Positions 15,094 to 52,898 of a stretch of DNA of 64,000 nucleotides are shown here, piece after piece. The translations under genes and the position numbers were made by a program. This stretch comes from Methyloversatilis sp. (GTDB taxonomy: Bacteria > Pseudomonadota > Gammaproteobacteria > Burkholderiales > Rhodocyclaceae), in the NCBI RefSeq assembly GCF_051861465.1, contig NZ_JBHYCQ010000007.1, positions 140,321-204,320 on the forward strand. Reading direction: 5' to 3'. The notes beneath the pieces were generated by a model, which saw only the letters and a list, made by a program, of their open reading frames with translations, did not search any database and had not been told where the DNA came from. Each line of letters starts with the position of its first letter. Position 1 is the stretch's first letter.

Positions 15094-15175
15094 GTGGGAG
15101 CGGCGGCCTCGCCGCGATCAGTGCCGCGATGATCGCATTGCAACGTGCGCATCGCGGCGAGGCCGCCGCTCCCAC
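15094..15175. repeat. REP doublet (REPIN), GTGG-GCGGCG class
   Basis: Two inverted copies of GTGG-GA-GCGGCG-GCCT-CGCCGC-GAT; the spacer is shared with the 29.1 kb and 52.8 kb copies. Confidence 0.9.
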
Positions 15176-15193
15176 AGGGGCCCCTCCCGCGCT

Positions 15194-28205: not shown

Positions 28206-28911
28206 CGGCGTCTTGCAGCGCGTGTGCGAGTTCGATGACGCTGTCGACCGCGATATCCACCGGCACCCCGGGTTTCGATTCGCCACGTCCCGGGCCGTGC
28301 TCGTCCGGGCGGGCGATGAAGGCGGTGCGCAACCCGGCGGCCGCGGCGCCGGCCAGGTCGGACGAATGGGCGGCAACCATCATCGTCTGTCCGGGAGCGA
28401 GGTCGAAGGCGTCGGCGGCCGAGCGGTAGACGATGGCCTTGGGCTTGTAGTCGCGCGCCAGTTCGGCACCGGTGATGGCGTCCCACGGAAAGTCGTTGCG
28501 TCGCGCGAGATCGACCATCAGCGCGATGTGGCCGTTGGAACACGGCGCGAGCCGGTAATGCGGGCGCAGTGCGGCGAGCCCGGCGGCCACATCGGGCCAG
28601 GCGTCGAGCCGGTGCCAGGCGAGCGTGAGTGCATGTCGCGTGGCCTCGTCGGCGCGCCCGGCGCCGAACGCGGTCAGCACGATATCGAGATTGCGCCGGT
28701 GCAGCGCGTCGAGCTTCATGAAGGGCAACCGGCCCGCCCTGACCTCTTCCATCGCCGGCTGGTATTCCGCGCGCCAGGCATCCGCCAGCGCCGGCCCGTC
28801 CACGTCGATGCCGGCCTGCCCGAGCAGCATCTCCGCCTCGCGCGCGATCGCCGTGCGCCAGTCGACCAGCGTGCCGAACACATCGAACACCAGCGCCTTC
28901 ACGTCATGCAT
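28192..28911 (-). CDS. Haloacid dehalogenase type II (HAD)
   Basis: FDVFGTLVDW, SNG, YKPK, AAHSSDL. Confidence 0.92.
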   Translation of the reverse strand: MHDVKALVFDVFGTLVDWRTAIAREAEMLLGQAGIDVDGPALADAWRAEYQPAMEEVRAGRLPFMKLDALHRRNLDIVLTAFGAGRADEATRHALTLAWHRLDAWPDVAAGLAALRPHYRLAPCSNGHIALMVDLARRNDFPWDAITGAELARDYKPKAIVYRSAADAFDLAPGQTMMVAAHSSDLAGAAAAGLRTAFIARPDEHGPGRGESKPGVPVDIAVDSVIELAHALQDAVRSR

Positions 28912-28997
28912 CGCCGTCTCCAGCCAGATTCAAAAGGTGCAGCTTAACGAAGTGCCGACGGCGGCGCCTTCACTGCAATAAGCTGGTGCGGGTGGGT

Positions 28998-29275
28998 CTG
29001 AGGGGTGCCCGTTCTGGCTGAGGGGTGCTGGCATTGGCTGTGGGAGCGGCGATCCACTGCTGGCCCTGCATGGCCAGCCGGCTCTGCGGGCGGCGAGCAG
29101 TGCTCGCCGAAACCCCCGCTCCGCCCTCGCCGCGATACGCACTCTGCACAACGACGGTCGCGGCACTGATCGCGGCGGGGCCGCCGCTCCCACAGGGCGC
29201 TTCTTCCACGGGGCGCCTGTCCCACACGGGCGCTGCTCCCACCGGGACCGCGCACAGGGGCCGCGCTCCCCTACG
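28998..29275. repeat. REP doublet (29040-29193) with a 71-bp insert, flanked by ladders of truncated REP heads
   Basis: GTGG-GA-GCGGCG [71 bp] GCCCT-CGCCGC-GAT, the shared spacer, then an inverted REP; 20-bp units on the left and 13-18-bp GTGG/GTAG stubs on the right. Confidence 0.85.
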
Positions 29276-29281
29276 AACCGC

Positions 29282-31112: not shown

Positions 31113-31137
31113 AGTTGGAGTGGGGAGCCAGCTTGAG

Positions 31138-31238
31138 CTGAGGGGTGCTGGCTTTGGCTGTGGGATGCTGGCTCTGGCTGTGGGATGCTGGCTCTGGCTG
31201 TGGGAGGGGCGACTCCCCACAGGTGCCGCCCCCACAGC
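31138..31238 (+). repeat. Three tandem 20-bp units leading into a collapsed REP remnant
   Basis: CTGAGGGGTGCTGGCTTTGG, then CTGTGGGATGCTGGCTCTGG x2, then CTGTGGGAGGGGCGACTCCCCACAG. Confidence 0.8.
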
Positions 31239-31251
31239 AGATGGAACCGGT

Positions 31252-33729: not shown

Positions 33730-34049
33730 ATCGCGGACGGGGTCCGCTCCTACGAAAGGCAACCCCGTCGCGCTTTCGTAGGAGCCATCCACGGCCGGCC
33801 TTGCATGGCCGGCCGGCTCTGCGGGCGGCGAGCGATGCTCGCCGAAACCCCCGCGCCGCCCCCGCAGGCGAATCCCGTCTCCGAAACAGCGACGTCGCGT
33901 GATCGACGCACCGATCGCGGAAAGGTCCGCTCCTACGAAGGGCAACCCCGTCCCGGTTTTCGTAGGAGCTTGCCCTGCAGGCGATCCCGGTCTTCGAAAT
34001 ACGACGTCGCGTGATCGACACGCGAATCGCGGACAGGGTCCGCTCCTGC
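33730..34049. repeat. BIME-like array of five GTAG-class REPs upstream of the RAYT
   Basis: Alternating inverted GTAG-GA-GCGGAC-nnn-GTCCGC-GAT (33730-53, 33914-36, 34026-49) and forward GTAG-GA-GCYTGC-CCY-GCAGGC-GAT (33778-, interrupted; 33962-85), with repeated spacers. Confidence 0.9.
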
Positions 34050-34092
34050 GAAAAACATCGCCGATCTCGCGCAGGTAAAATATGCTTTATGG

Positions 34093-34536
34093 ATGCTGAA
34101 CTCACCGCATCAAAGCCGCCTTCGGATCGGTCGCCACTCCATCGCGGGGCAGGTCTATCACGTGACGATCGTGACCCGCGACCGCATTGCCTTCTTCGCT
34201 GATCTCCGGAATGCGCGCACAACGGTGCTGACGCTGCGCGCCGCGTCGGACCTCGGCGATGCGGAGACGCTGGCCTATGTGCTGATGCCGGAGCACCTGC
34301 ATTGGTTGATGATGCTCGGACCACACCGACCCTTGCACCGCGTGGTGCATGCGTTCAAATCCGTCAGCGCCCACCGGGTCGGTCAACCTGTCTGGCAGCG
34401 CAGCTTCCACGACCACGCCCTGCGGTCCGACGAAGACTGCGTCGTCGCCGCGCGTTACATCATCGCCAACCCGGTGCGACGCGGTCTGGTCGAGCGAGTG
34501 GGCGACTATCCGCACTGGGACGCTGTCTGGCTTTAG
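34093..34536 (+). mobile_element. rayT: REP-associated tyrosine transposase (RAYT/TnpA-REP, HUH Y1 family)
   Basis: YHVT, MPEHLH (HUH), WQRSFHDH, YIIANPVRRGLV, DYPHW; REPs on both sides. Confidence 0.93.
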
Positions 34537-34552
34537 TGGGCGCCGATCAGCC

Positions 34553-34638
34553 ATCGCGGACAGGGTCCGCTCCTACGAAAAACGTCGACGTTGGCCGATG
34601 CCTTGCCGCTTTTCGTAGGGGCCTGCCCCGCAGGCGAT
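34553..34638. repeat. GTAG REP pair downstream of the RAYT
   Basis: Inverted GCGGAC-type copy at 34553-76; forward GTAG-GG-GCCTGC-CCC-GCAGGC-GAT at 34615-38. Confidence 0.9.
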
Positions 34639-34715
34639 CCAGCCCACAAACACGCGCCATCGCGTGATCACCGCGCAGATCGCAGCGTGTCGAGGACACC
34701 GCCGCTATCCCGCCA

Positions 34716-52771: not shown

Positions 52772-52898
52772 GTGGGTGCGAAATTGTGGGAGCTGTTCCT
52801 GTGGGCGCGGCGGCCTCGCCGCGATACGCACTCTGCAATGCGATCCTCGCGGCACTGATCGCGGCGAGGCCGCGGATGCCAAAGGCCGCCACTCCAAC
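52772..52898. repeat. REP doublet (from 52801) preceded by two truncated GTGG heads
   Basis: GTGGGTGCGAAATT | GTGGGAGCTGTTCCT | GTGG-GC-GCGGCG-GCCT-CGCCGC-GAT; the right-hand REP carries a 16-bp interruption. Confidence 0.85.

Follow-up and report, generated by a model that had tools for sequence, protein, structure and literature searches.

REPs and RAYTs are widespread, and RAYT action in cells has largely been inferred from in-vitro work; we know of no demonstration of RAYT activity in living cells beyond a few excision reads. Hairpin-stimulated slippage, as at bacterial VNTRs, yields perfect head-to-tail units, rapid changes in copy number and lagging-strand dependence.

Tandem REPs, REPINs and BIMEs have been described together with an in-vitro amplification model (Nunvar 2010, 2013; Bertels & Rainey 2011; Ton-Hoang 2012; Di Nocera 2013; Corneloup 2021). 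In the BIME model (Ton-Hoang et al. 2012, NAR, PMC3333891, Fig. 7B), a Y1/HUH enzyme acts on the REP hairpin with a GT[AG]G guide, single-stranded DNA is cut at (C)C|T either 5' or 3' of the REP, and primer extension and strand transfer add a tandem unit. Cleavage by E. coli TnpA-REP occurs inside C|T (PMC3333891, PMC8266576), with the consensus CC|T (PMC3333891), and in the S. maltophilia enzyme a CT-to-TT change abolished cleavage (PMC8266576). Under the guide rule from Marinomonas enzyme data, a GTGG guide predicts CC or CA, not CT. In the REP/RAYT literature, which we covered incompletely, we found neither ladders of hairpin-less REP heads nor a replichore bias, and an earlier description is possible. 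Here we describe such ladders in a window of 64,000 nucleotides (C7:140321-204320 of a Methyloversatilis draft genome of 3.83 Mb and 65% GC), in the remainder of that genome and in its relatives.

Results

REP-head ladders in the window

The dominant repeat of this genome, GTGGGAGCGGCGGCCTCGCCGCGAT, occurs in 140 copies at ≤5 mismatches and in a further 42 copies with a nested element in the loop. These and the other REP statistics are based on a Hamming scan (a fuzzy-regex search misses ~40% of copies). As in described REP/REPIN-RAYT systems, the repeat is a high-copy short extragenic palindrome with a 5' GT[AG]G head, it forms heads-outward inverted doublets such as that at about 15096-15175 (68 heads in the opposite orientation were found within 120 nt 3' of REPs, among 102 REPs), and a single-copy Y1/HUH transposase gene lies between its own REPs. 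Two RAYT genes are present in the genome (two PF01797 matches). The features concerned are the following, with positions counted in the window unless a contig is named.

28912-29281: intergenic interval of the main site, flanked by two minus-strand ORFs
29000-29019 and 29020-29039, plus strand: left ladder, two 20-nt units GAGGGGTGCCCGTTCTGGCT and GAGGGGTGCTGGCATTGGCT (read from the sequence)
29040..29193: REP doublet (REPIN) with heads outward, left head at 29040
29052-29122: nested two-hairpin element of ~71 bp in the loop of the left REP
29193-29169, minus strand: right REP of the doublet, GTGGGAGCGGCGGCCCCGCCGCGAT
29209-29194, minus strand: right ladder, stub 1, GTGGAAGAAGCGCCCT, 16 nt
29225-29210, minus strand: right ladder, stub 2, GTGGGACAGGCGCCCC, 16 nt
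29242-29226, minus strand: right ladder, stub 3, GTGGGAGCAGCGCCCGT, 17 nt
29274-29243, minus strand: outermost degenerate unit or units, GTAGGGGAGC..., equal to GTAGGGGAGCGCGGCCCCT plus GTGCGCGGTCCCG (read from the sequence)
31131-31205, plus strand: array of 20-nt units GTGGGATGCTGGCTCTGGCT, 3.7 copies, directly past a stop codon (TRF period 20)
52772-52785, plus strand: stub GTGGGTGCGAAATT before the REP at 52801
52786-52800, plus strand: stub GTGGGAGCTGTTCCT before the REP at 52801
52801-52825, plus strand: intact REP GTGGGCGCGGCGGCCTCGCCGCGAT
about 15096-15175 (feature 15094..15190): canonical REPIN
15190-15176, minus strand: single stub GCGGGAGGGGCCCCT beside the canonical REPIN
34093..34536, plus strand: RAYT gene of the window (Y1_Tnp, 147 aa) with GTAG-type REPs on its flanks
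C19:25556-25999, minus strand: RAYT-1, outside the window, with GTGG-type REPs on its flanks, an HLH and a later Y

The stubs listed in the original prediction, which had been made from the letters of the window, are all present. Those of the left ladder (29000-29039) have degenerate heads and tails without likeness to a REP, and the right ladder was called independently by TRF (29187-29246, period 16, 3.7 copies). TRF also picked up the array at 31131-31205, which the prediction had overlooked. The ladder unit GTGGGAGCTGTYCCT of the 52772-52825 site is present at six unrelated loci.

Two further elements accompany the REPs of the window. After the 20-nt array, positions 31191-31240 hold a head-to-head remnant, GTGGGAGGGGCGACTCCCCACAG, without a hairpin, and then another CCCCACAG; the remnant looks like a collapsed or excised REPIN, and collapsed forms of this kind also lie at C9:67584 and C9:67859. 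The ~71-bp two-hairpin repeat (ATCCACTGCCGGCC...GAAACCCCCGC; window copies at 29052-29122 and 33787-33857) was found in the loops of REPs from two different families, and follows a GTGG head in about 35-42 copies in this genome.

The RAYT encoded in the window is not the cognate of the laddered family. In its surroundings (33730-34660), GTAG-type REPs GTAGGAGCGGACC... and GTAGGAGCCTGCC... alternate, their heads are preceded by TTC and not by CT, and they carry zero stubs. RAYT-1 is the likely cognate of the laddered GTGG family, whose REPs it would bind and cleave. The best RAYT matches were in Methyloversatilis sp. XJ19-13 (93%) and XJ19-49 (87%), and this homology assigns the genome to Methyloversatilis.

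Stub enrichment, polarity and junctions

We defined a stub as a head-like motif in the same orientation, with at least 6 of 8 matches to GTGGGAGC, located 9-24 nt upstream of a REP, a threshold at which the background is about 16%. Counts were compared with 200 dinucleotide shuffles and with reverse-complemented flanks; a reversed-sequence null with a loose head definition was uninformative. At least one stub was found 5' of the head in 91 of the 178 GTGGGAGCGGCG-type REPs, compared with 28.0 in the shuffles (maximum 38), and at least two stubs in 43 of 178, compared with 4.7. The total came to 164 stubs for the 178 REPs (33.7 ± 5.9 in shuffles), and with the flank reverse-complemented just 16 of 178 REPs had a stub. 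Exact copies of GTGGGAGC numbered 27 in the 120 nt upstream of REPs, against 0.4 expected. The intact REP was 3'-most, that is innermost, in 34 chains and 5'-most in one, in a test that is blind to stubs 3' of an intact type-A REP. Both the excess over shuffled background and the innermost position of the intact REP had been predicted from the window, and both hold genome-wide.

Junctions were nearly uniform at the last base. The base at −1 of the head was T in 109 of 115 REPs, and the preceding dinucleotide was CT in 74/115 and TT in 32/115 (28%), with CCT predominant. Most GTGG heads are therefore preceded by CT, as had been proposed, and the E. coli cleavage rule that was invoked for them fits the CT junctions but fails for the 28% that are TT.

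Each ladder unit opens with the first 4-16 bases of GTGGGAGCGGCGGCCTCGCCGCGAT, lacks a hairpin and ends in YT; units are 12-21 nt long (9-23 nt at the extremes), with a bimodal distribution at 15-16 and 20 nt, and unlike BIME units they contain no complete REP palindrome. Across the whole genome, 10 of the 13 best-scoring tandem arrays with a period of 10-25 were REP-head ladders sharing one 8-nt head. Perfect arrays include (GTGGGAGCTGTCCCT)x5, (GTGGGAGAGGTCCCT)x3 and (GTGGGAGCGGCGGCGTTCTT)x3, the last lying inside a five-unit array of that 20-mer.

Complete REPs also occur in tandem with a 38-nt period, in the relative G018 (C2:25-163) and in this genome (C14:79027-79090, minus-strand coordinates), with the recurring linker TGGC[AG]CCGGCCCT, and may be the full-length counterpart of the ladders. 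Contigs of this genome end in REP-head arrays or have N gaps inside them (C13:1-77 and C18:26676-26765, with a further case on C8 near 28445-28663 in minus-strand coordinates), so that assembly appears to break at ladders, and the real number of copies is underestimated.

Two unit classes differ in replication strand

Two or more identical units were present in 41 arrays. Unit and REP shared a prefix of exactly 8 nt (GTGGGAGC) in 22 of these arrays, of 3-7 nt in 10 and of 11-16 nt in 9, and the base following the 8-nt prefix was T in 18 of 22 arrays. Class I units are REP prefixes of 11-16 nt that extend into the hairpin loop, e.g. GTGGGAGCGGCGGCCT, ending at loop CC|T (units spanning the head through loop CC|T are seen at C3:349825 and C1:411107, for example); the class also takes in ...GGTTTT 20-mers, and copies usually number 1-3. 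Class II units join the constant GTGGGAGC to a foreign tail (such as TTGCT, TGTCCCT, TGTTCCT, TTCCT or TGAGACCT) and form long perfect arrays of up to 30 identical units, the maximum being in a relative. The tails of class II match neither the REP nor the adjoining flank, and identical unit types and tails turn up at unrelated loci. A model in which tails are copied from neighbouring 5' sequence was rejected, since they have only (C)CT in common with the outer flank. Bounding of class II units by C|T on the complementary strand was also rejected, as it fits GTGGGAG... arrays but fails for GTGGGAT... arrays (e.g. 31131-31205).

We assigned ladders in this genome to replication strands from GC skew over ±40 kb, whose amplitude is small and which left 73 of the 178 REPs unassignable. 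Class I ladders were on the G-rich strand, which carries leading-strand sequence, in 19 cases and on the lagging strand in 6, while class II ladders were leading in 3 and lagging in 22; a second classifier gave lead:lag ratios of 19:11 for class I and 6:23 for class II (p = 0.0014). In G169, whose chromosome is complete, dnaA is at 2.005 Mb and the sampled GC skew switches sign accordingly; 43 REPs there had at least two perfect-head stubs. Class II lay on lagging-strand sequence in 26 of 27 cases (binomial 4 × 10−7), the one exception lying close to the predicted terminus, at 89 kb from position 1, and class I was split 9:7, a weak bias. When all ladders were pooled, strand bias was absent, emerging only after the split by tail type. 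The two sides of doublets bear different classes, which trade sides between replichores.

The outer gene was on the strand of the ladder in 26 of 33 class I and 24 of 37 class II cases, and these counts of flanking-gene direction reject transcription as the cause of the strand asymmetry. Oriented insertion of an asymmetric REPIN, with distinct X and Y spacer ends, was likewise rejected, as class tracks strand within each spacer-end type. REPs and REPINs themselves have no fixed orientation relative to replication. Independence from both gene direction and REPIN orientation indicates that the strand rule must arise in place, and the position of class II on lagging-strand sequence means that the hairpin it adjoins is the one exposed on the lagging-strand template. 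The window follows the rule: skew on C7 is negative, the three ladders with foreign tails (29000, 31131 and 52772) read along the plus strand, and the one with REP-like units (29194-29242) reads along the minus strand.

Ladders are associated with one REP family and one RAYT

Within this genome, stubs were found at 68 of 131 REPs of the GTGG family (52%), compared with 1 of 47 in the GTAGGTTG... family, 0 of 23 in the GTAGGAGCGGACC... family and 0 of 19 in the GTAGGAGCCTGCC... family, such that the three GTAG-headed families had stubs at 0-2%. We surveyed 21 genomes of the genus with a three-head ladder pattern, scoring RAYT-1 orthologs at ≥85% identity; the reversed-pattern control gave zero matches in all 21.

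Own genome (G000): 22 three-head ladder matches, 84 exact GTGG REPs, RAYT-1 ortholog present (100%)
G014: 34 ladder matches, 116 exact GTGG REPs, RAYT-1 ortholog present (93%)
G018: 95 ladder matches, 211 exact GTGG REPs, RAYT-1 ortholog present (87%)
G169: 198 ladder matches, 197 exact GTGG REPs, RAYT-1 ortholog present (85%)
G005: 5 ladder matches, 38 exact GTGG REPs, no RAYT-1 ortholog
G003, G008 and G013: 0 ladder matches, 57, 67 and 65 exact GTGG REPs, no RAYT-1 ortholog
All other genomes of the genus: ≤5 ladder matches, ≤10 exact GTGG REPs, no RAYT-1 ortholog

Abundant ladders were confined to the four genomes that carry a RAYT-1 ortholog, the remaining 17 having at most 5 matches; these four form one clade, and the cross-genome association is thus close to a single phylogenetic observation. 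REPs of G003, G008 and G013 have the same head and stem (GTGGGAGCGGCGCCC[CT]CGCCGCGAT) and a RAYT that is ~58% identical, and stubs were found at 8 of their 48 REPs, which is chance level, although the heads-inward doublets of these genomes make them an imperfect hairpin control. At their loci (L065-L094), the loop is CCCC or CCCT, heads face inward ~30 nt apart and no conserved CT precedes the head. Slippage-type VNTRs can form in any suitable sequence with no dedicated enzyme, whereas the ladders are confined to one REP family and to RAYT-1 genomes.

Beyond the genus, occurrence was sporadic in evenly drawn sets of genomes (150 from the order, 400 from the class), with 1-2 matches in each of six other genomes. 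We also looked at 80 RAYT loci of other taxa, where a Lysobacterales MAG (L140:1967-2050) had (GTGGGAGCGGCTTCT)x3 adjoining a REP, GTGGGAGCGGCTTTAGCCGCGAT, and starting 12 nt past the RAYT gene, and two further loci were weaker ladder cases. The Lysobacterales array is a REP-prefix ladder in another order. In a Pseudomonas MAG (L167:1012-1421), a 24-nt unit, GCCACAGGGGAGTGGGACACAGGA, is repeated 17 times next to a RAYT gene, and a genome of another family (G155:C23:25427-25496; L027, L030) has (GTGGGAGGGGCCCATGGCCTT)n, in which the tandem unit is 21 nt long and includes a short palindrome of its own, GGCC CAT GGCC.

Turnover at the orthologous locus

The main site was compared among relatives with one genome per species. 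The left array has 2 units here, about 19-20 in G014 and at least 6 in G018. In G014 (95% flank identity) it consists of GTGGAGGGCTGGCTCTGGCT in about 19 copies, and the right side carries an additional innermost REP-like unit, GTGCGAGCGGCGGCCT; in G018 it consists of at least 6 perfect units of GTGGGGTGCTGGCTCTGGCT, and a second full REP takes the place of the right ladder. G015 and G010 have BIME-like arrays from other REP families at the orthologous site. The site is a REP hotspot, and its flanking genes in G010 and G015 are 91-97% identical to their counterparts in this genome: G010 (L025, G010:C45:53350-55000) has about 11 tandem doublets of ~120 bp from the GTAGGAGCGAGCC/GTAGGAGCGACCC family, and G015 (L026, G015:C29) a GTAG BIME. 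Copy number shifts wholesale from species to species and, as at slippage-type VNTRs, the units are perfect, head to tail and differ in number among relatives. These differences among species indicate that units are gained and lost as units, fast and in place.

The expected variation among relatives was thus found at this locus in three species, with 2, about 20 or at least 6 units. The original prediction had also read the stubs as fossils of repeated RAYT cut-and-rejoin or re-insertion, an ordered record that should decay with distance. Identity of stubs to the first 12 nt of their own REP was 0.76, 0.74, 0.73 and 0.69 for ranks 1-4, so a gradient is nearly absent, and the ordered record is contradicted by the many perfect arrays (up to 30 identical units), by long-array tails that are mostly neither REP nor flank, and by unit types that recur at unrelated loci. 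Perfect arrays, flat identity, foreign tails and recurring units together point to amplification as units, in place.

Discussion

The ladders described here are polar, specific to a single REP family and to genomes with RAYT-1, turned over in place and, in class II, asymmetric with respect to the replication strand. Our preferred interpretation, which we consider about evenly balanced between right and wrong, is that the stubs are REP-head minisatellites, built and resized directly 5' of an intact REP of the RAYT-1 family by replication-coupled, RAYT-dependent amplification. The REP region would become single-stranded at the fork, where RAYT-1 would nick the YT|GTGG (SCC|T) junction; a free 3'-OH, provided by the nick or by a nascent strand that has stalled at the hairpin, either at its foot or at its loop, would be rejoined to the 5'-phosphotyrosyl end, and every such nick-rejoin event would add one head-containing unit. 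The scheme would be the nick, extension and strand transfer of Ton-Hoang et al. 2012 (Fig. 7B) on a much shorter segment. Once two units were present, stall-induced slip-back of lagging-strand synthesis at the hairpin could expand or contract the array.

Several observations bear on RAYT-dependent amplification. The lagging-strand bias of class II is consistent with an enzyme that acts on single strands at the fork, for instance a Y1/HUH transposase, and the CCT-dominant junctions match the CC|T of E. coli TnpA-REP. The unit type that ends at loop CC|T and the published asymmetric REPIN excisions, in which ~6 bp of one REP stay behind, also count in its favour. Against it, the scheme gives no source for the class II tails, and the same tails at unrelated loci argue against simple in-place copying, which does not predict such recurrence; the 28% TT junctions, the CC or CA expected for a GTGG guide, the single clade behind the cross-genome association and the weak class I bias in G169 also count against it. 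We infer that RAYT itself cuts and rejoins the units. The RAYT reading of the original prediction accordingly keeps the polar head-specific ladders, the YT junctions and the association with one RAYT/REP family, and loses the ordered record. That half of the REPs are laddered, that species differ, that ladders co-occur with the RAYT and that the strand is fixed make the ladders look like a by-product, or read-out, of REP processing at the fork. In a stronger form of this reading, which is tenable but in our judgement leans towards the improbable, the ladders would be direct in-vivo products of the RAYT at the fork, one unit per nick-rejoin on the lagging-strand-template side, and stubs might also serve as landing sites through which REPINs regain their symmetry.

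Slippage could in principle suffice with no enzyme, if a hairpin on the lagging template stalled Okazaki synthesis after GTGGGAGC and the nascent end slipped to the previous head, with minisatellite dynamics to follow. The strand of class II is indeed the one on which the nascent lagging strand passes from ladder into hairpin, the modal 8-nt prefix includes the first 2 nt of the REP stem and so stops close to the stem foot, and arrays are perfect and hypervariable. Yet equally good hairpins of other REP families in the same genome are essentially stub-free, and the REPs of G003, G008 and G013, which have the same head and stem, bear no ladders and no stubs above chance level; a first duplication would require the tail to be already in the flank, where it is absent; and class I units stop in the loop, not at the foot of the stem. 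We regard slippage alone as unlikely, though still a serious rival. We give the same standing to the serial excision and re-insertion suggested by the original prediction. Asymmetric excision would leave a footprint made of the last 6-8 bp of one REP (GTGGGA/GC) and a new REPIN would land beside it, such that the ladder counts cycles and stubs possibly serve as landing pads. Asymmetric excisions in P. fluorescens do leave about 6 bp of the right-hand REP, and pairing of a 5' tail with a complementary target has been proposed there (PMC3116915); the constant part of the class II unit is 6-8 nt, the side of the footprint would be fixed relative to the lagging-strand template, as seen, and the site is a REP hotspot with different families in G010 and G015. 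However, 30 identical units would demand 30 mutation-free cycles at one site, a decay gradient is absent, a bare footprint does not explain a tail of 5-13 nt per unit, and class I units (12-16 nt) exceed the footprint in length.

Selection for functional arrays beside REPs, whether as multimeric protein-binding sites, 3'-UTR RNA elements or RAYT titration sites, would suit the well-conserved heads and the location of most ladders downstream of a gene and on its sense strand. Neither copy number nor unit sequence is kept among close relatives at the same locus, however, and the strand rule tracks replication and not transcription, which leaves selection a very small probability.

If the stronger form of our reading is correct, the class and side of a ladder would for the first time allow the strand, site and frequency of RAYT activity to be read from a genome. 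Ladders are abundant, family-specific, strand-asymmetric and fast-evolving, and would thus offer a simple assay of RAYT activity and its coupling to replication, in which array length at known loci is compared between cells that have the RAYT and cells that lack it, or is followed once the locus has been inverted. They are also rich hypervariable markers in Methyloversatilis and appear to account for many contig breaks in draft assemblies, and the Lysobacterales case (L140) suggests that they occur more widely.

Comparison with known systems

The ladders resemble the BIME model in having CCT|GTGG at most junctions and in the unit type that stops at loop CC|T. Known BIME products, however, are whole REP or BIME units of tens to >100 bp that keep their hairpins, whereas ladder units are short (12-21 nt) and hairpin-less, lie strictly 5' of the head, fall into two strand-distinct classes and often have non-REP tails. 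The excision footprints of P. fluorescens SBW25 (Bertels & Rainey 2011, PMC3116915) are similar in involving GTGGGAG-headed REPs and in leaving a head piece of ~6 bp on one side only, but they are single events in reads and not fixed arrays, and no tails, amplification or replichore bias were reported for them. Ordinary slippage is not specific to one repeat family, whereas the ladders occur only with one RAYT. Elements of the IS200/IS605 type (IS608, ISDra2), which transpose as single strands at the lagging-strand template, resemble the class II ladders in a strand preference set by the direction of the fork, and their hairpin likewise has a guide tetranucleotide on its 5' side; there the IS element itself is oriented, whereas here REPs and REPINs are unoriented and just the type of the flanking ladder follows the strand.
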